Shown here: piece by piece, positions 3,128-62,262 of the stretch
How positions within the stretch are numbered: position 1 is the stretch's first letter
Layout of the letters: the number at the start of each line of letters is the position of its first letter
From: Chamaesiphon sp.
GTDB lineage: Bacteria; Cyanobacteriota; Cyanobacteriia; Cyanobacteriales; Chamaesiphonaceae
Direction of reading: 5' to 3'
NCBI GenBank assembly: GCA_965246715.1
Contig: CBDFFH010000021.1
Location: 32,001-96,000 of the forward strand
DNA length: 64,000 nucleotides
Notes under the pieces: generated by a model
Database searches by the model: none
What the model was told of the DNA's origin: nothing
Seen by the model: only the letters and a program-made list of their open reading frames with translations
Program-made: the position numbers and the translations under genes

Positions 3128-4657
3128 ATGTTCCGGTACCGTGTCGTGTCGATCGACTCTAAATATACCTATCGAGTTGGCGAAATACCTGCAAATCCAT
3201 TATTGGCGAACTCACAGCCAGACTTTACCAAGATTTATCAATTGTTAGCAGTTGCCGAATCTCAGGTAAGTTATCGAGTCGAGCCAGTTCCCGCTGGTTC
3301 GCCACAATTGCCAGCAAATTTACAACTGCGATCGTATCAACAGCTAGCCGTCACCAATTGGTTTCAAAATCAAGGTCGGGGCACGCTCAAAATGGCTACT
3401 GGCAGCGGTAAAACCATCACCGCACTAGCGATCGCCACCCAACTATACCAACAAATCGGACTACAAGTACTCATCATCGTCTGTCCGTTCCGTCACCTCG
3501 TCACCCAGTGGGGTAGAGAGTGCGAAAAATTTCATCTTCAGCCGATTCTCGCCTGTGAAAGCATCCATAGATGGCAGAGTCAATTTTCCCATCAACTTGC
3601 CAAAATCAATACTCGCCAACAAGCATTTCTGACCGTTATTACCACCAACGAAACCCTAATTACTCCAGGCTTTCAGTCGCAACTCAAATACTTACCCGAT
3701 CGCACTCTCATTATCGGCGATGAAGTTCACAACCTCGGTGCGAAAAAACGCGAGTCCAGTCTCCCGCGCAATGTGGGCTTGCGACTCGCCCTCTCAGCCA
3801 CTCCCGAACGCCACTATGACGATGTGGGCACCCAAAACATCTTCGACTACTTCGGCGACATCCTCCAGCCCGAATTTACCCTCAAAGATGCGATCGAGCA
3901 AGGTGCCCTCGTCCACTATCTTTATTACCCTATCCTCATCGAACTCACCGAAAGCGAGACCGAAGAATATCTTAAACTCTCCCGCGCGATCGCCCGCAAA
4001 CTCCTCTACCAATCCAAAGATCGCGCAACTAGCTACGATGAATTCGACACTCCCGATCTCACGCCCCTATTGATGCAGCGTGCCAGACTGATCGGTGCAG
4101 CAGCCAACAAGCTGGTAGCACTCAAAAAGTTGATGCGCGATCGACTCGACACCAGCCACACCCTATTCTACTGTGGTGATGGCAGTAGCGACAGCACCCA
4201 ACAACTGGCCGCAGTCACTCATCTATTAGGAAACGAACTCGGTTATCGCGTCAACACCTACACCGCATCTACATCTCTTCCTGACAGAGAACAACTCCGC
4301 CAGCAATTTGAATCTGGTGCTCTTCAGGGACTAGTCGCCATCCGCTGTTTAGATGAAGGCATCGACATTCCCGCCATCAAACACGCCATCATCCTCGCTA
4401 GCAGCACCAACCCGCGCCAATTCATCCAACGCCGAGGTCGCATCCTTCGACCAGATGTTGGTAAGGATCGTGCTACGCTATACGATATGGTCGTTCTACC
4501 CCCGCAGCTCGATCGAGATACGCTGGCGATCGAGCGTAATTTACTCAAAAAAGAACTCCTCCGCCTGATTGAATTCGCCGATCTCGCTGACAACGCCGCC
4601 ACCGCAAGAACCCAACTCCTCACCCTTCAGAAACGCTATGGGTTATTAGATTTGTGA
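3128..4657 (+). CDS. SF2 DEAD/DEAH-like helicase (ResIII type; resembles the cyanobacterial family annotated 'DNA phosphorothioation system restriction enzyme'); start uncertain
   Basis: LRSYQ, MATGSGKT, GDEVH, LSATP, CLDEGIDIP, QRRGRILR motifs. Confidence 0.85.
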   Translation: MFRYRVVSIDSKYTYRVGEIPANPLLANSQPDFTKIYQLLAVAESQVSYRVEPVPAGSPQLPANLQLRSYQQLAVTNWFQNQGRGTLKMATGSGKTITALAIATQLYQQIGLQVLIIVCPFRHLVTQWGRECEKFHLQPILACESIHRWQSQFSHQLAKINTRQQAFLTVITTNETLITPGFQSQLKYLPDRTLIIGDEVHNLGAKKRESSLPRNVGLRLALSATPERHYDDVGTQNIFDYFGDILQPEFTLKDAIEQGALVHYLYYPILIELTESETEEYLKLSRAIARKLLYQSKDRATSYDEFDTPDLTPLLMQRARLIGAAANKLVALKKLMRDRLDTSHTLFYCGDGSSDSTQQLAAVTHLLGNELGYRVNTYTASTSLPDREQLRQQFESGALQGLVAIRCLDEGIDIPAIKHAIILASSTNPRQFIQRRGRILRPDVGKDRATLYDMVVLPPQLDRDTLAIERNLLKKELLRLIEFADLADNAATARTQLLTLQKRYGLLDL

Positions 4658-6668: not shown

Positions 6669-6754
6669 ACCCACCCCGCCCGTTCGGGCACCCCTCCTCG
6701 GAGGGAAATTCACTAGCCACTAGTCACTAGCCACTAGCCACTATCCCCTATCCC
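6669..6754. repeat. GC-rich dispersed repeat (6669-6710) followed by CACTAGC/CCCCTAT heptamer repeats
   Basis: acccaccccgcccgttcgggcacccctcctcggagggaaatt; an inverted, interrupted copy lies at 9408-9550. Confidence 0.75.
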
Positions 6755-8376: not shown

Positions 8377-9351
8377 TTATTCATTAAACACACCCATCTG
8401 GCGGAATTTATCATATCGTAGCGATCTTAGTTCCGTTGGCTTGAGTAGTTGCAAGGCTTGAATATTCTTCAAAATTGCTTCCTTCAACACATCTGCTGCC
8501 TTAACGGGATCGGCATGGGCGGCACCGAGTGGTTCGGGCAATATTTGGTCGAGAATGCCGAGATTTTTTAAATCCTTAGCAGTAATTTTTAATACTTCTG
8601 CGGCTTGAGGAGCCTTACCGGCATCTTTCCACAGAATCGAAGCGCAAGCTTCGGGACTAGCAACATAATAAACTGCGTGCTCGAACATCATCAACCTGTC
8701 ACCTACACCAATCCCTAATGCACCACCAGATCCACCTTCGCCGATAACCGTACAAATAATCGGCACATCGAGTCGAAACATCTCGCGCAGATTATATGCG
8801 ATCGCTTCACCCTGACCTAATTCTTCTGCTTCTAGTCCCGCCCAAGCCCCCGGCGTATCGATAAATGTAATAATTGGCATTCCAAAACGATTGGCGTGTT
8901 CCATCAACCGCATTGCCTTGCGATACCCGCCTGGAGCAGCCATGCCAAAATTGCGGGCGACGTTATCTTTAGTATCCCGCCCTTTTTGATGCCCCAGCAA
9001 TACTACTGGAATTCCAGCTAATTTACCCACACCACCAACTAGAGCCGGATCGTCTTTGCCGCGTCTGTCCCCATGCAATTCGATCCATTCATCACAGATT
9101 GCCTGAATGTAGTCGAGCGTACTGGGACGACGAGGATGACGGGCAAGTTGGAGCTGTTGCGCTGGGGTGAGAGTGCTAAATATTTCATCACGAAGTTGCA
9201 CGTATTTTGTCTCCAACTGTCCGATCTGACTGGAGATATCGACGCTGCTTTCTTCTGCAAGTTCGCGAATTTTATCAATTCGTTCTTGCAATTCCGCCAA
9301 CGGCTTTTCAAATTCGAGTAAAAAGGGCTTTTTTTCCGTGGGAGCAGGCAT
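8377..9351 (-). CDS. accA: Acetyl-CoA carboxylase carboxyltransferase alpha subunit
   Basis: [32 protein letters not shown]. Confidence 0.97.
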
Positions 9352-9407
9352 CTAATAAATTATGAATGATGAATTATAAATTATGAATTCACTCCCCCTC
9401 TCTCGCT

Positions 9408-9550
9408 AAATTCCCATCCTTGGAGCGAAAAGTGCAGTCTTGGGGTTTCCCCAAGTGAAGCACCTTTTCAAGACAGCGATGCGCGCTCGTCGGGTTTCCC
9501 GACGTAAAAAGCGCATCAAGACAGGGGTGCCCGACAGGGCGGGGTGGGTT
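9408..9550. mobile_element. Dispersed repeat interrupted by two tandem ~50-bp AGCGA...TCAAGAC hairpin elements (9424-9474, 9475-9522)
   Basis: Removing 9424-9522 leaves a close match to the reverse complement of 6669-6710; a third copy of the insert lies inverted at 62120-62170. Confidence 0.8.
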
Positions 9551-9601
9551 CCGAATTAGGGATTCCGGTTTAGAGATGGGTTCCAAAATTAGGGCTAGAT
9601 T

Positions 9602-10633
9602 CTAGCCCCCAACAAAAGACAGCAACGGACGAAAGCCATGCTTGACAGAGGCTTGACCGATTTGATCCATCTTCTCGATCGTAATCTGATTGCGACCCCA
9701 CGAGAAGTTAGTATGCCATTTTTCGAATTCTAAAAGCATCGCCTCGGCAAAACAAGCAAATAGTTGGCGGCCGGGAATATCCATCGCCACGATATTCATG
9801 ATTTTCCAGTCGATGTCGAGCGAATGCTCGACGATGCCACCGTTCATCACGTAAACTCCTGGTGATTGAATTTTTGTTCCCAGATTTTTAGGATAACCGC
9901 CATCGATTAACAGACAAGGTTGTTTGAGTTTGGTGGCATCGATTTCCACCCCTTTGGGCATACTTGCCACCCACACGACGATATCCGCTTGGGGCAATGC
10001 TTCCTCCATCGATAGAATTTTGCCGCGTCCTAGCTCGGATTGGAGCTGTTGAAGCCGCTCTTGATTGCGCGCGACCAAAAGTAAGTCAGTGAGATCTGTG
10101 CGCGCGTCCAGCCAGCGACAGACAGCACTACCGATATCGCCAGTCGCACCGACAACCGCAACAGTAGCTTTGCTCAAGTCGATCCCAAGTTTGGCAGCGC
10201 CATCTTCTACCTGCCGACAAATAATGTAGGCTGTATGCGTATTTCCGGTGGTAAATTTGTCAAAATCTAATTCGATATTCCGCACTTGCTTATTTTGATG
10301 GAGATCGAATTCTTCAAAGATAATCGACGAAAATCCACCTAGCGCGGTAATATTAATGCCTTGCTTTTGAGCGTGAGCCATCGCATTGAGAATCTTGCGG
10401 ATGGCAGCTTTAATTCGCCGCGTCGCCAACATCTCTGGCAAAAAACACGATTCGACATAGTAGCCTTCGATCTGTTGTCCGGTGACACTCGTGACCTTAA
10501 TATGGTCTACTGTCTGTGGTGGGGCACTGCACCAAAAGTCCAGCCCTTGGTCGGCGTATTCGGGAAAGCCTAAGTCTTTTGCGACGGCTTGGGCGTGTTC
10601 TAAACTGGTAAGGTGACCGATAAGACCAAACAT
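9602..10633 (-). CDS. aar: Long-chain acyl-ACP reductase (alkane biosynthesis)
   Basis: [56 protein letters not shown]. Confidence 0.97.
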
Positions 10634-20894: not shown

Positions 20895-22925
20895 TCATCG
20901 CATTACTCTAGTAGCATTCCCGATCGCCAGTAAAGCCACCCCTACATCAGCAAATACCGCCTCCCACATCGTAGCAAAACCAAAGATCCCAAATACGATA
21001 ACTATCCCCTTAACTGCCAAAGCCAAGACAATATTCTGCCAGACAATTTGTCGAGTTTTATGACTTATTTGAATAACTTCAGCTAACTTTGCAGGTGAAT
21101 CATTCATGATTACTACATCAGCAGTTTCGATCGCGGCATCGCTACCCAGTCCCCCCATCGCCACGCCGACATCCGCACGGGCAATCATCGGTGCATCGTT
21201 AATCCCATCACCAACGACCATCACTCGATGTTTACCGCCAGCATGGGCGATAATCTCTTCTAATGCAGATAGTTTGTTTTCAGGGAGTAATTCGGCTTGA
21301 TAGTCATCCAAACCTAACTCCTGACTGATTTCGGCAGCAACAGCTTGACAATCTCCAGTCAACATCACTGTGCGGATAATGCCTAATTTCTTGAGGTTAG
21401 CAATTGCCACCAGTGCATCTGGCTTAAGTTCGTCGGCAATTTTGAGATAACCTGCATACTTACCATCGACAGCTACGTAGACGACTGTGCCGTTAACTTT
21501 GGGTATTTGGTGATTACTTCGTTCTTTAGCTAAAAATCGATCGTTCCCAGCAATAATAACTCGTCCGTCGATCTTGGCACGAACGCCATATCCAGCCAGT
21601 TCCTGATAATCTGCGACTATAGATCGATCGATTTTCTGTCCGTAAGCTTGTTGAATCGAAATCGCGATCGGATGTTGAGATTGTGATTCGACTTGGGCGG
21701 CTAATTCTAATAATTCCTCGCGGGAAAACCCATTAACAGGGAAAATATCGGTAACTTTAAATACTCCGTGAGTTAACGTCCCAGTCTTATCGAATACGAC
21801 TGTTTTAACCTGAGTGAGCGTATCAAGATAAGTGGAACCTTTAATTAAAATTCCGCGTTTAGCCGCACCACCAATTCCACCAAAGTATCCCAAGGGAATA
21901 CTAATTACCAGCCCACAGGGACAGGAAATTACCAATAAGATTAAAGCGCGATAAACCCAATCAAAGCGATCGGCTCCAGCAACAAAGAATGGCGGGATTA
22001 TCGCGATTGCGAGTGAGAGAAAAACAACAATCGGGGTATAGGTTCTAGCAAAAGTTGTAATAAATTTTTGCGTTGCGGCTTTCTTCTGACTGGCATTTTC
22101 GACTAGTTCTAAAATTCGCGAAATCGATGATTGTGCGAAGATCTTGCTGACTCTAACTGTTAACGCGCCAGCTTGATTGATGGTACCAGCTAAAACCATT
22201 TTTCCAGGTGAGATCGATCGCGGTATCGACTCTCCCGTCAAAGCTGATGTATCGATATAAGAATTGCCCTCGATTACTTCGCCATCTAGTGGGACTTTTT
22301 CCCCTGGCTTAATTAGGATTAGATCGCCAACATTAACTCGATCGGGAGCCACAGTTACAAGTTCGTTACCACTAATGAGATTAGCTCGATCGGGTCTGAT
22401 TTCTAGTAGCGATCGAATCGATCGCCGCGAATTATTAACAGCATAATCTTGACACAATTCACCAACACGGTAGAATAACATGACCCCTACTGCTTCAGGC
22501 AACTGATGGATCGCTAATGCACCGAGTGTCGCGATCGTCATCAAAAAAGTTTCATCAAAAAAGCTACCACGAATGATATTTCGTCCCGCACTCGTTAATA
22601 CTTGCCAACCACTGAGAAGATAAGCAGAAATAAAGATTGAATACTCGCCAATACCCTGGAAATTTTGCTGTAATGGTTGCTGCCAAATCATGCCAATAGC
22701 AAGCAATCCACTGACAATCCCAATTAATAATAATTCGCGCTGAAAATCGAACTCATCCTCTCCATGACTGTGCCCTTCATGGTCGTCATGACTGTGACTA
22801 TGTTGGTGTTGGTGCTCATCATGTCCATCGTGACCTTGTTGATGGTCATCATGACTACTATGCTGCCGATCGTCTTCACGGTCGTCGTCACAACTACAGC
22901 ATGAATTGCGATCTTTTGGCATCAC
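20895..22925 (-). CDS. Heavy-metal P1B-type ATPase (Zn/Cd, ZntA/CadA-like) with a Cys/His-rich N-terminus
   Basis: TGES, SCPC, DKTGTLT, HP, GDGINDAP, AVFADVG; N-terminal CCSC and poly-His tract. Confidence 0.93.
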   Translation of the reverse strand: MMPKDRNSCCSCDDDREDDRQHSSHDDHQQGHDGHDEHQHQHSHSHDDHEGHSHGEDEFDFQRELLLIGIVSGLLAIGMIWQQPLQQNFQGIGEYSIFISAYLLSGWQVLTSAGRNIIRGSFFDETFLMTIATLGALAIHQLPEAVGVMLFYRVGELCQDYAVNNSRRSIRSLLEIRPDRANLISGNELVTVAPDRVNVGDLILIKPGEKVPLDGEVIEGNSYIDTSALTGESIPRSISPGKMVLAGTINQAGALTVRVSKIFAQSSISRILELVENASQKKAATQKFITTFARTYTPIVVFLSLAIAIIPPFFVAGADRFDWVYRALILLVISCPCGLVISIPLGYFGGIGGAAKRGILIKGSTYLDTLTQVKTVVFDKTGTLTHGVFKVTDIFPVNGFSREELLELAAQVESQSQHPIAISIQQAYGQKIDRSIVADYQELAGYGVRAKIDGRVIIAGNDRFLAKERSNHQIPKVNGTVVYVAVDGKYAGYLKIADELKPDALVAIANLKKLGIIRTVMLTGDCQAVAAEISQELGLDDYQAELLPENKLSALEEIIAHAGGKHRVMVVGDGINDAPMIARADVGVAMGGLGSDAAIETADVVIMNDSPAKLAEVIQISHKTRQIVWQNIVLALAVKGIVIVFGIFGFATMWEAVFADVGVALLAIGNATRVMR

Positions 22926-34127: not shown

Positions 34128-35812
34128 TCAACTGACCGAGAAGCCAGGAATTAATAGTTGCAGATCTTTTCTGTCAACAACTCGATGTTTTTTGACTTTT
34201 GCAGGTTTTGACTCTCGATCGTCTGGGTCGTCATCGTTATATTCAGATTCCAAATCTTGATTAGGAACAGGATTGAGATATGCAAGCAGTTTGCCTCTAG
34301 AGATTACATTTGTATTGTTAGATTCTGGATCTTTAGTTTGTCGCCAAGTATCAGGTAGGTATCCAAAACAAACCCGTTTAAATCTTTTCCCATAACTCAC
34401 TGTTTCCTTCAATTCAGCTACTAACAGACTGTCATCAGGTATTTGTAAAACAACTGCTGGGGAATGCGTATTTATAATCACCTGTCTTAAAGGATTATCA
34501 AGTCCAATTTCCTCACTTGTATCAGCAGCAATATCTTGAAGAAGTTGAAGGATTTTTGGAATTCGCTCTGGATGAATTCCATTTTCTGGTTCTTCAAGAC
34601 ATAAAAGACCTTGTGCTTCTGGGTCTAATGCAAGAACTGCTAGTGCCAAAAAGCGCATAGTTCCATCTGAAAGTGCTTTAGCTGGATGTGATGTTCCGTC
34701 TCTACTTGTCACCATCAACGTAAGAAGCTCGCGCCGATTATCTCGATCGACCCATACTTTATCTACATCATCAATCAATGTTGCTAATCGGTTGGCAATC
34801 TCATAATAAATTGGGTTATCTACGTCATTGTCTGATTGTCCATTTTTGTATCTTTCTAGTCTCGCCAAGTGATAGAGAGTTGCAGCCAAGTGAGAGCCAT
34901 CTGTTTCTAATTTAGTAGGGGCAGTGAATTCATCAGGTTGCCTCAAGGAAGACGGCTCTAGTTGAAGCAATCGCCAGGATTGCATTTCTCTGCGAGCCAT
35001 TAAAGCTGTTGGGCTTTCAGCAGCATTAGTAACAGATAAAACTGTACGAGGAAGATTAATTGCAGATCTTGTGAGGGGTCTACCACTACTTCCACCATCC
35101 TGATGAAGTTTGATTACCCTACCTGTGCCTTCACCTTCTGTAGAAATAAAGAAAGGTACTCTTCGCTCGCCTTGTACTGCGGTCTTCCTCCAAGTTTTTG
35201 CAGCGTGAGGAAACAATAAATGTTTAGCTGCATCTTTCAAATTAATGTGAACCAATTCCTCTTTGAGAATTTCCAATACTCCCAAGGAACGAAGACTATC
35301 ATCAGCACGGTAAGTAAGGTCAACAGAATACCGCAAAAAAGTGATACTTGACTTTGCCTTTTGACCTAGATCGTCAATGCCCTCTCGGGATACAATCATT
35401 TCTGCTTCAAAAGATATTGTATCAGCGTAAGTATCACCTACTCTATGAAATAGACTTCTGGCGTTGCTGAATTAATGTATGAAACGCACAAACAATTTTT
35501 GTAGGGGTAATGCCTCGTGCTTACCCCGCATCGATTCAGGGTACCCACAAGGAGCACCCCTACAAAAAATCATACCCATATTCAGCAACGCCGAAATAGA
35601 CTTCTTATATCACCTGTTTTTCCTTCTTCATCTCGAACAGATAGGGCAGCCTCAACTAAAGGTAAACTAGCTAACGCACTGAGGAACCTAATTGCATCAA
35701 ATAGATTAGATTTACCTACCCCATTTGCACCAGCGATGCAGGTGAATGTTCCAAATCGAACATCTACATCCACAAGATTTTTAAAGCCAGAAATTTTTAA
35801 TCTAGTTAACAT
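34128..35812 (-). pseudogene. AAA_21/ABC-type (AbiEii/OLD-like) ATPase disrupted by a MITE
   Basis: Walker A GANGVGKS in the 5' fragment; LSDGT, LEEPENGIHP, NTHSP in the 3' fragment; removing the insert and one TSD restores ...DIRSLF-HRVGDTYADTISFEAEMIVSRE... Confidence 0.9.
35460..35592. mobile_element. 133-bp MITE with GGCGTTGCTGAA terminal inverted repeats, a 13-bp target duplication and an internal GTAGGGG...CCCCTAC REP
   Basis: GAAATAGACTTCT repeated at 35447-35459 and 35593-35605. Confidence 0.92.
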
Positions 35813-38211: not shown

Positions 38212-38589
38212 ATGCCGACAAATGATTCTGAACTGCAAGCTCAAGCTAGAAGAATTCTGGATGCGATCGCTTTCATGCCCTTTGAGCAATGCCAATCTCT
38301 GAGCCGTGGATTTGAAAGCATTCCCGCTCGTCCTGGCATATATGCAGTTAGACATAGAACGGATGGACTGCTTTATATTGGTAAAACTAAAAGTTTGCGA
38401 GGACGCTTCAGTGGTGGTCATAAAGCTTTTTTGTGGGCATGGCTCGATAAATATAACGATGAAGACGTGCGGATTGCGGTACAACTCATTTCACACTGGG
38501 AAAATCCTGCGCTACTATTGGAATTAGAATCGATTGTCCTAAGAGCGACAGAGCCACCATACAACGTTCAAATTCCAGCAGAGATGTAA
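38212..38589 (+). CDS. GIY-YIG nuclease family protein
   Basis: PGIYAV...LLYIGKTKSLRGRF...LE...PPYN. Confidence 0.85.
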   Translation: MPTNDSELQAQARRILDAIAFMPFEQCQSLSRGFESIPARPGIYAVRHRTDGLLYIGKTKSLRGRFSGGHKAFLWAWLDKYNDEDVRIAVQLISHWENPALLLELESIVLRATEPPYNVQIPAEM

Positions 38590-56770: not shown

Positions 56771-56880
56771 GGTGCTAATAGTGCAAAGTCCGCCTTCGCG
56801 GACTTTGCACTATTAGCACCGATTTCAATCGAGTGCGGTGCTTGAACGAAGCAAATATCCTTAACCCGAACTCACGTTAA
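56771..56880. repeat. REP/MITE fragment: perfect 23-bp-stem palindrome followed by a CCCGAACTCACGTTAA end
   Basis: GGTGCTAATAGTGCAAAGTCCGC-CTTC-GCGGACTTTGCACTATTAGCACC; 3' part shared with 12549-12701. Confidence 0.8.
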
Positions 56881-62054: not shown

Positions 62055-62262
62055 TAACCCAAGTTGCTACCCATAACCTAAGCGGTTAGAAACCGCTGCT
62101 CGGAATACAAAGTCCGCCTGTCTTGAAAAGGTGCTCTACTTGGGGAAACCCCAAGACCGCACGTTTCGCTTCGCGGACTGAATATCTTAGTCCGCGAAGG
62201 CGGACTTCGCATCATTAGCCACGATTTCAATCGTAGGCGTTTCTGGGTAGAAACTTGGGTTA
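62055..62262. mobile_element. MITE-like TAACCCAAGTTGCTACC element with a REP doublet and a nested 51-bp insert (62120-62170)
   Basis: TIRs 62055-62073 and 62244-62262; same family as 44959-45139. Confidence 0.85.

Follow-up and report, generated by a model that had tools for sequence, protein, structure and literature searches.

A family of precisely inserted hairpin elements of about 50 nt in Chamaesiphon, possibly moved as folded single-stranded DNA

Copies of the R1 element in the window

The window analysed here is a stretch of 64,000 nt from Chamaesiphon sp. (contig CBDFFH010000021.1, positions 32,001 to 96,000 of the forward strand). It carries three copies of a small hairpin sequence without coding capacity, which we call the R1 element. 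Copy A (9425-9475, plus strand, A-type, 51 nt) and copy B (9476-9523, plus strand, 48 nt) lie head-to-tail, and their junction reads CAAGACA^GCG (the caret marks a junction or an insertion point). Together they split a GC-rich repeat, host 6, into a left half at 9408-9424 and a right half at 9524-9549, both on the plus strand and continuous with each other in the closest relative, G011. Copy C (62119-62169, minus strand, A-type, 51 nt) occupies the loop of a GTCCGCGAA^GGCGGAC hairpin. The covariance model of the family, described below, scores copies A, B and C at 45.3 bits (E 4.5e-10), 62.2 bits (E 1.1e-14) and 46.7 bits respectively, and with filters off it matches nothing else in the window. 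No Rfam family matched the element region above threshold in a scan of 9000-10000; the sub-threshold matches of a permissive scan were DicF (21.9 versus 48 bits) and mgtE (9.9 versus 200).

Copy A consists of GCG, an outer stem AAAAGTGC/GCACCTTTT, an inner stem CTTGGGG-TTT-CCCCAAG and CAAGACA. By direct reading it differs from copy C at 4 of 51 positions, in agreement with the 47/51 identity given by an earlier reading of this DNA from its letters (hereafter the sequence-only reading), which had also placed the three copies correctly. Copies A and B have in common only their tails, loop tip and fold, and differ in their stems. As single-stranded DNA, copy A folds at -11.8 kcal/mol (z -4.1; 0/200 shuffles as stable), copy B at -14.8 kcal/mol (z -3.8; 0/200) and copy C at -10.2 kcal/mol (z -2.6; 3/200). 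Sequence and folding thus bear out the earlier claim that A and B have the same ends and fold with different stems.

The boundaries of the unit were fixed at sites of the type CGATTT^CAATCG (host 3), where GATTT(GCG...CAAGACA)CAATCG stands against GATTT^CAATCG and neither end can slide. The insert comprises exactly GCG...CAAGACA, with neither duplication nor loss. The unit AGCGA...TCAAGAC of the sequence-only reading is corrected accordingly; its observation as a whole is confirmed, and the family is far larger than was seen there.

Family, consensus and covariation

A strict search of the genome with the two tails alone gave 68 matches, about two thirds of which clearly belong to one hairpin family. 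Requiring GCG, a closing hairpin and CAAGAC yielded 102 rows, three of which were dropped as chance, leaving a catalogue of 99 copies. These are all full length, with no 5' truncation or tailing; 93 of the 99 measure 47-51 nt, and a terminal A follows CAAGAC in 96. They comprise 57 distinct sequences of up to 53 nt (56 at up to 52 nt), which form 23 clusters at <90% likeness and so represent at least 23 subfamilies. In the consensus, GCG and a single variable base lead into the outer stem; beyond an asymmetric internal loop comes the inner stem, of 7 bp and tipped by GG-TTY-CC, and after another variable base the unit closes with CAAGACA. It has no inverted terminal repeats, as the sequence-only reading had also noted. 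Tails and loop tip are invariant over at least 23 subfamilies; the stems vary across them yet remain paired.

Among 25 representatives, Watson-Crick compensatory (two-sided) changes were found at 10 of the 11 predicted stem pairs. Paired cells amounted to 93.5%, a figure inflated by the choice of copies, versus 63.8% in shuffles, and double-change cells to 83 versus 28. The covariation score was 0.781 versus 0.24 in shuffles; none of 500 shuffles reached it, and slid controls stayed at or below 0.155. One-sided changes of the G-T type were limited to 5 of 275 pair cells. The element had been described as structure-defined and a covariance model suggested for it; the compensatory changes support that description, and the model, R1, was built, shows significant covariation and was used to scan the genome and its relatives.

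Some copies appear to record events on the hairpin itself. The loop is inverted in 8 of 94 copies, which read GGAAACC or GGGAACC (AAA for TTT, GAA for TTC), and two A-type copies, one found by the analysis and the second by reading, are perfect long hairpins. The latter lie at G000:C22:141664-141713 (minus strand) and G000:C39, plus-strand offset 21153-21205, G000 being the genome under study; in one the 3' arm is rewritten as the complement of the 5' arm, and in the other the reverse has occurred. Taken with the near absence of G-T pairs, the inverted loops and the arm-corrected hairpin suggest events on DNA hairpins. The sequence-only reading had left the choice between single-stranded DNA and RNA; these three features lean towards the former and away from RNA.

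Empty sites and mobility

For each copy, 25 nt of left flank and 25 nt of right flank were joined and searched genome-wide. Gapless empty paralogous sites were found for 84 of the 99 copies, several of them matching at 50/50 bases, and one host-6 site gave up to 30 gapless empty matches. Within the window, an empty paralog of host 6 lies at 6669-6711 on the minus strand, with the site between 6695 and 6694 by direct reading; this is the empty GC-rich repeat previously noticed at 6669-6710. An empty paralog of host 2 (GGGTACCCACAA^GGAGCACCCC) at 35526-35575 (C21:67526-67575, plus strand) agrees at 50/50 bases with the joined flanks of T-type copies from other parts of the genome, and an empty paralog of host 3 at 56801-56850 (C21:88801-88850, plus strand) matches 50/50 bases of the joined flanks of filled copies.

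Orthologous sites were compared with G011, in which the ortholog of the A+B site is exactly empty, reading ATTCCCCTCCTTGG^AGGGGTGCCCGACAGGG. A strict filter (an alignment of 140 nt or more with 90% identity or more on both flanks) was applied over 1.2 Mb of the G011 chromosome. Seven of nine sites passing it differ between the two genomes: five are filled only in G000 and two only in G011, the remaining two being filled in both, with flank identities of 91-100%. One further site filled in both genomes fails the filter. One of the empty sites (C25) retains an extra A, so that in some cases the 3' A may be part of the target. At the G011 ortholog of the copy C locus, the entire repeat around that copy is absent.

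The spacer that holds A+B was also followed in other relatives (loci from 10, some covering one side). Copies were found there only in G016, on the opposite strand and nested in a different copy, and therefore represent an event independent of A+B. In that genome, at L041:2290-2470, an A-type hairpin is split by two inverted copies of other subfamilies, Russian-doll fashion. Metagenome contigs (88% likeness) over 9000-10000, not used as main evidence, include three joints ending at the right edge of copy B (9523), and one run (X3), likewise not main evidence, joins an empty left half of host 6 to that position.

Mobility, and the contrast of filled with empty sites on which the sequence-only reading had rested it, is thus shown by paralogous and orthologous empty sites, that of A+B in G011 included. 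The R1 family is very probably mobile and non-autonomous and, as judged from these sequence comparisons, is active within the recent history of the genus.

Insertions within genes

Three copies in G000 lie in coding sequence, each inside a host-6 repeat and in frame, with Pfam domains intact on both sides. The gene for a CobN/Mg-chelatase (L204, G000:C52:109471-113532) carries a 48-nt P-type copy in sense orientation at aa 697-714, the MutS2 gene (L203, G000:C29:31638-34265) a 48-nt antisense copy at aa 435-451, and the gene for a PNKP kinase-phosphatase-ligase (L202, G000:C19:36637-39366) a 51-nt sense copy at aa 239-256. The small GC-rich host repeat of the cobN-like gene is empty in G011, G018, G013 and G031, and G010 lacks the host repeat too. 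Since only G000 is filled, the direction of the change at cobN is insertion.

Host 6 is a GC-rich sequence of about 45 nt, CCCCTCC..GGAGGGGTGCCCGA..GGGCGGGGTGGGT, and behaves itself as a small insert. It is found in the cobN-like gene (L204:2080-2200) of five genomes and is absent from that of G010.

Insertion rules and targets

Grouping of 94 copies by their flanks gave 34 site classes. Insertion is orientation-specific and without target duplication, which agrees with the lack of a long duplication in the sequence-only reading. The base at position -1 is A in 29 classes, T in 5 and never G or C; that at +1 is G in 22, A in 6, T in 3 and C in 3. The junction seen most often is A^G (21 of 34 classes); T^C, T^A, A^T and others occur, some of them unambiguous. 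In the catalogue rows, A precedes GCG in 64/102 and follows CAAGAC in 97/102. As A at -1 is not universal and other junctions exist, AG is a strong preference and not a required crossover core. The sequence-only reading had proposed such a core, each copy starting with AG and being followed by AG. This holds for the copies of the window and for the commonest junction; it does not hold genome-wide.

Sites are shared between subfamilies and subfamilies between sites. Five subfamilies use the identical site and orientation in host 3 and five likewise in host 6, and 11 T-type copies occupy the same fixed site in host 2, while identical A-type copies are found in at least 10 unrelated site classes. 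Copies are nested one inside another, the entry points being xxxA^GCGCA in the 3' arm and CA^AGACA in the tail, and also form head-to-tail tandems. The target lies in a predicted hairpin loop in 15/34 classes versus 259/1020 control positions.

Distribution

The R1 model gives at least 135 matches in G000 (best 150 of 1219 candidates scored). With the best 150 candidates scored per genome, the family was found in all 18 searched genomes of the genus, with at least 26 to at least 149 matches each. Among 12 other genera of the order, one gave a single weak match. Of 150 further cyanobacterial genomes, drawn evenly and representing 79 other genera, 148 had no copy and two had one match each. These two single copies, at L232:3479-3529 (plus strand) and L233 ~3555-3605 (minus strand), belong to two different genera, are convincing on reading and have not proliferated; one lies between petC and petA, and the other resembles the A-type and has an outer stem with compensation of its own. 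In public contigs, at least 100 stretches contain an exact A-type core, and among the matches listed nearly all are from Chamaesiphon sp.

Search for a driver enzyme

A search for an autonomous version, with GCG and an outer arm up to 6 kb upstream of the other arm and CAAGAC, revealed no longer version with R1 ends in the genome: all 27 matches are chance-like except one. The exception, which has the form of a copy split by an open reading frame that the sequence-only reading had pictured for an autonomous partner, is a Z-type copy interrupted by an IS4-like insertion sequence. The non-autonomous nature claimed by that reading is consistent with this result and with the lack of coding capacity. 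The IS4-like insertion sequence (458-aa open frame) lies in the loop of the Z-type copy, at G000:C9:142579-144121. Genes between pairs of copies 0.3-4 kb apart (6 pairs) were rejected as drivers, being ordinary housekeeping genes by sequence.

Six loci in G000 encode a Y1 domain. L006 is a REP-associated tyrosine transposase, or RAYT (180 bits), flanked by its own GTAG hairpins, present in 51 copies; L003 is RAYT-like (77 versus a cut-off of 80) and lies between inverted GTAGGGGCGGGTTTATGC; L002 is an IS200-like Y1 gene between GTCCGCGAAGGCGGAC-type hairpins, the genome's most abundant hairpin (135 copies). The RAYT gene, bordered on both sides by GTAGGGTGGGCAnTGCCCAC hairpins (51 copies), has a second copy that carries an in-frame TGA. 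L006, L005, L003 and L002 form three REPtron-like arrangements, each with different repeats. No canonical IS200 transposase was found in G000, the best Y1 matches being of another subclass, and a search for the IS91 Y2 family gave no match, its control likewise matching nowhere. Y1-domain genes occur in 26/27 genomes of the genus, all 15 of good quality among them; this would accord with a Y1 driver but is not diagnostic.

Two other enzyme classes were considered as drivers and rejected. IS621-like elements of the IS110 family are present in 8 full copies of two types (NCBIfam 242 bits), for example at L212 (G000:C22:92839-96285) and also at L213-L215 and L217; only one 9-mer is common to them and the R1 element, and the core and the rest of the donor site differ. 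Their ends are CT^TGTATC on the left and TTGACnnTCAAGACAGTAT^CT on the right, and they are inserted at CCC-CT-ACC of GTAG hairpin repeats; a circle would juxtapose the ends into a TTGACT-N17-TATCCT promoter-like pair. A small GIY-YIG nuclease gene of 125 aa (type L229) lies in the window at 38212-38589 (plus strand), and a truncated paralog, L230, lies on contig C36 beside a transposase. Neither has an R1 copy nearby; the L229 type is patchy in the genus, without an intact copy in G011, G010, G013 or G018, and also occurs in other genera.

A possible mechanism and its alternatives

For exact, duplication-free, orientation-specific insertion of hairpin-defined DNA, single-strand cutting and joining by an HUH/Y1 enzyme fits best among known mechanisms. 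We are evenly balanced on the full reading, in which precise hairpin insertions are moved as folded single-stranded DNA by an enzyme acting in trans and predicted to be HUH/Y1-like. Of its parts, a hairpin intermediate at the DNA level seems rather probable, and some trans-acting single-strand DNA enzyme is slightly favoured as the driver; the assignment of that enzyme to the HUH/Y1 type is tentative. On a circle, or in a tandem, the invariant letters at the foot of the hairpin, CAAGACA and GCG, would be brought together as a contiguous site, CAAGACA^GCG. If an enzyme recognised this site along with the fold, it could cut between A and G in the element junction and likewise in the target; the ends might then be joined as by IS200/IS605-type enzymes, and exposed loops of other hairpins would be the favoured targets. 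The element junction and the commonest target are alike A^G.

Several observations weigh against this mechanism. No R1 copy lies within ~1.5 kb of any of the six Y1 loci (none at E<=1; weakest-scoring matches <=8.6 bits), so that the HUH or recombinase-like driver of the sequence-only reading found no support in gene proximity. Every RAYT-like gene is flanked by different, GTAG-tagged repeats of its own, and the L002 type was found in only 15 of 18 genomes of the genus and also in 7 of 12 other genera without the family. The left flanks lack the common 4-5 nt target needed by IS200/IS605, only position -1 being constrained; the R1 element has one hairpin and not one at each end; and a preference for G at +1 is not expected for known Y1 transposases. 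The enrichment of targets in predicted hairpin loops is modest. Finally, the aligned copies had been preselected by a fold filter, which inflates the percentage of paired cells and leaves the double-change count unaffected.

Instead of an HUH/Y1 enzyme, another single-strand nuclease, Ssn-like GIY-YIG or similar, may nick beside the hairpin, the element spreading by repair copying, homing or gene conversion. The bottom strand starts with TGTCTT, which fits the HGTCWY head of the Ssn-related motif, and C follows directly after the hairpin as in NTS (PMC11893778); moreover, PMC3733652 describes CGTC-tagged repeats with TGTC variants that have no linked transposase, and 11 T-type copies at one fixed host-2 site are what gene conversion would give. 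However, the remainder of the motif does not fit, the hairpin of ~40 nt is two-tiered, and the only candidate genes are the small L229, whose type lacks an intact copy in the four relatives named above and occurs in other genera, and the truncated L230, neither of them near a copy. Identical A-type copies occupy at least 10 unrelated site classes, and the genome holds no host-6 plus P-type donor for the copy in cobN; homology-driven copying alone therefore does not explain moves between hosts, and we consider this route unlikely. Less probable again is that the element hitch-hikes on the IS110-family (IS621-like) RNA-guided recombinase. In addition to the 8 full copies of two types, both types, the G011 version and a relative from another genus end in TCAAGACAGTAT-CT, which gives a 9-mer, TCAAGACAG, common with the 3' tail of the element, and the GTAG hairpin repeats in which these insertion sequences are found are targets of the R1 element as well. 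But the CT core and the remaining donor site are absent from the element, which has CG or GG where the insertion sequence has TAT-CT; it has many targets where the insertion sequences use one, CCC-CT-ACC; and a double-stranded circle of 50 bp is an implausible donor. The recombinase was found in 5 of 18 genomes of the genus (assemblies may miss it) and is present in a genus without the family, and an 8-9-mer common to several insertion-sequence ends could be chance.

A dedicated enzyme would be dispensable if a stalled polymerase switched templates between hairpins through microhomology of 1-2 nt, namely A and G. The A at -1 and the G at +1 are the last and first letters of the unit, hairpin loops are often targeted, and the arm-corrected and loop-inverted variants point to hairpin-templated DNA events. 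Such switching would nevertheless have to account for bounds that are identical in all copies and fall within invariant tails, 3-4 and 7-8 nt beyond the stem, for T^C sites without microhomology and for proliferation in one genus only; the invariance of tails and loop tip over at least 23 subfamilies points to recognition by a protein. We regard it as quite improbable, a little less so than dependence on IS110. Very improbable are two further explanations. In one, the element would itself be immobile and carried only within larger repeats, and exact deletion would have produced the empty sites; copy C did reach its locus inside a larger inverted-end repeat, and one host context is common to 11 T-type copies. 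Yet the host repeat in cobN is empty in four relatives and filled only in G000, so the deletion reading needs four independent exact deletions, the same subfamily occurs in unrelated hosts, heptamer arrays and other subfamilies, and 7/9 orthologous sites differ despite 91-100% identical flanks. The other is copying through RNA and reverse transcription, for which it can be said that both strands fold well; against it stand the near absence of G-U-type pairs, the full length of all copies without 5' truncation or tailing, genic insertion in both orientations (cobN and PNKP sense, mutS2 antisense) and the lack of an Rfam family match.

To return to the single-strand enzyme, a bolder version, which we hold to be more doubtful than its assignment to the HUH/Y1 type, is that R1 would represent a new class of ~50-nt 'nano-transposon', active in Chamaesiphon. 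It would need no more sequence than a hairpin and the 10-nt junction CAAGACA^GCG, be moved by an undescribed single-stranded DNA cut-and-join enzyme, and find in A^G in an exposed loop a nearly sufficient target. If true, such an enzyme would explain the movement of micro-elements resembling small dispersed repeats in many phyla.

Comparison with known elements

Small dispersed repeats (SDRs) of Nostocaceae, SDR4, SDR5 and SDR6, of 21-27 nt, were reportedly described by Elhai and co-workers in Genome Research in 2008. SDRs resemble the R1 element in being very small and gene-less, in keeping a hairpin by compensatory changes, in lacking direct repeats and in nesting in repeats and heptamer arrays and occasionally in genes. 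In behaviour the R1 family matches the SDRs. At 47-51 nt, however, R1 is about twice their size, and it has a two-tier stem and fixed GCG and CAAGACA tails, the SDRs being compared by description only. According to PMC5861425, no SDR-like repeat was found outside Nostocaceae; R1 belongs to a unicellular genus outside that family. A literature search with three A-type sequence strings, supplements lying outside it, gave no match, and searches under repeat terms yielded no earlier description.

The R1 family fails the defining features of GTAG REPs, the published Ssn-related motif, IS200/IS605 derivatives, MITEs (miniature transposable elements with inverted repeats) and integron attC sites. MITEs are excluded by the absence of both terminal inverted repeats and target-site duplication from the R1 element. 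Integron attC sites have conserved paired boxes R'' and R' (RYYYAAC / GTTRRRY); this identity was rejected for R1, whose outer stems vary freely and whose conserved letters are the unpaired tails. IS200/IS605 elements have hairpin-defined ends and insert strand-specifically 3' of a short target, without terminal inverted repeats or duplication. R1 is likewise hairpin-defined and orientation-specific, inserts 3' of a short target and shows neither duplication nor terminal inverted repeats, but it has one hairpin, a target of only a single A or T and no transposase between its ends (for an overview of the family, see PMC6006769).

With the REP/REPIN-RAYT system (see PMC3116915, PMC6006769 and PMC3733652), R1 shares a conserved single-stranded tag beside a variable hairpin, a copy number in the hundreds and a supposed movement as single-stranded DNA, and RAYT genes are present in G000. 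It lacks the GT[AG]G tag at the 5' foot, having the tails GCG and CAAGACA (TGTCTTG on the bottom strand); its hairpin is longer and two-tiered, its copies form head-to-tail tandems and not inverted pairs, and it flanks no RAYT gene, the RAYTs here having GTAG repeats of their own. The CGTC repeats and the Ssn-related motif come closer in the bottom-strand TGTCTT, which agrees with the HGTCWY head, in the C after the hairpin (PMC11893778) and in having no linked transposase (PMC3733652). The whole pattern HGTCWYN(0-2)YYVSBRHN(0-5)WNVSBRGN(0-2)RNCYNB does not fit the bottom strand of copy B in a by-eye reading, which fails at the first stem letters; the R1 hairpin is ~40 nt versus ~20, and no Ssn-like GIY-YIG gene is flanked by R1 copies. 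CGTC repeats are moreover mostly head-to-head dimers (PMC3733652), unlike R1.

Among small structured repeats that form tandem arrays, R1 can also be set beside elements of unrelated sequence in unrelated hosts. Yeast and fungal mitochondrial GC clusters and double-hairpin elements are such small structured repeats. Rickettsia palindromic elements are inserted in frame in genes (PMC3733652). Both groups are like R1 in their small structured form, in tolerated in-frame entry and in tandem arrays; R1 differs in that orthologous empty sites date its insertions to within one genus.

The R1 family offers a clean handle on how non-coding, very small repeats move, a question that dates from the 2008 report on SDRs, with exact bounds, a simple target rule and subfamilies that separate the parts read by sequence (tails, loop tip) from those read by shape. 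A further handle is given by two near-identical genomes in which most comparable sites differ and by lineage-specific in-frame insertions in the CobN-like chelatase, MutS2 and PNKP. The mechanism thereby becomes testable in a culturable genus, and such elements are seen to reshape proteins, not spacers alone.

Host repeats and minor features

Copy C lies within a MITE-like repeat of 204 nt at 62057-62260 (no strand assigned), which is the different repeat that the sequence-only reading had found to be split. It has inverted ends of 16 nt, ACCCAAGTTGCTACCC and GGGTAGAAACTTGGGT, and a duplicated TAGTTA borders it on both sides. GCGGACT hairpins make up this repeat together with a CGATTT^CAATCG palindrome, and both are favoured R1 targets. 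The R1 element also enters heptamer arrays in other parts of the genome (GGATTTT, GGGAATA). In the window, tandem heptamers (CACTAGC, then CCCTAT-type) occupy 6712-6750, adjoining the empty host-6 repeat.

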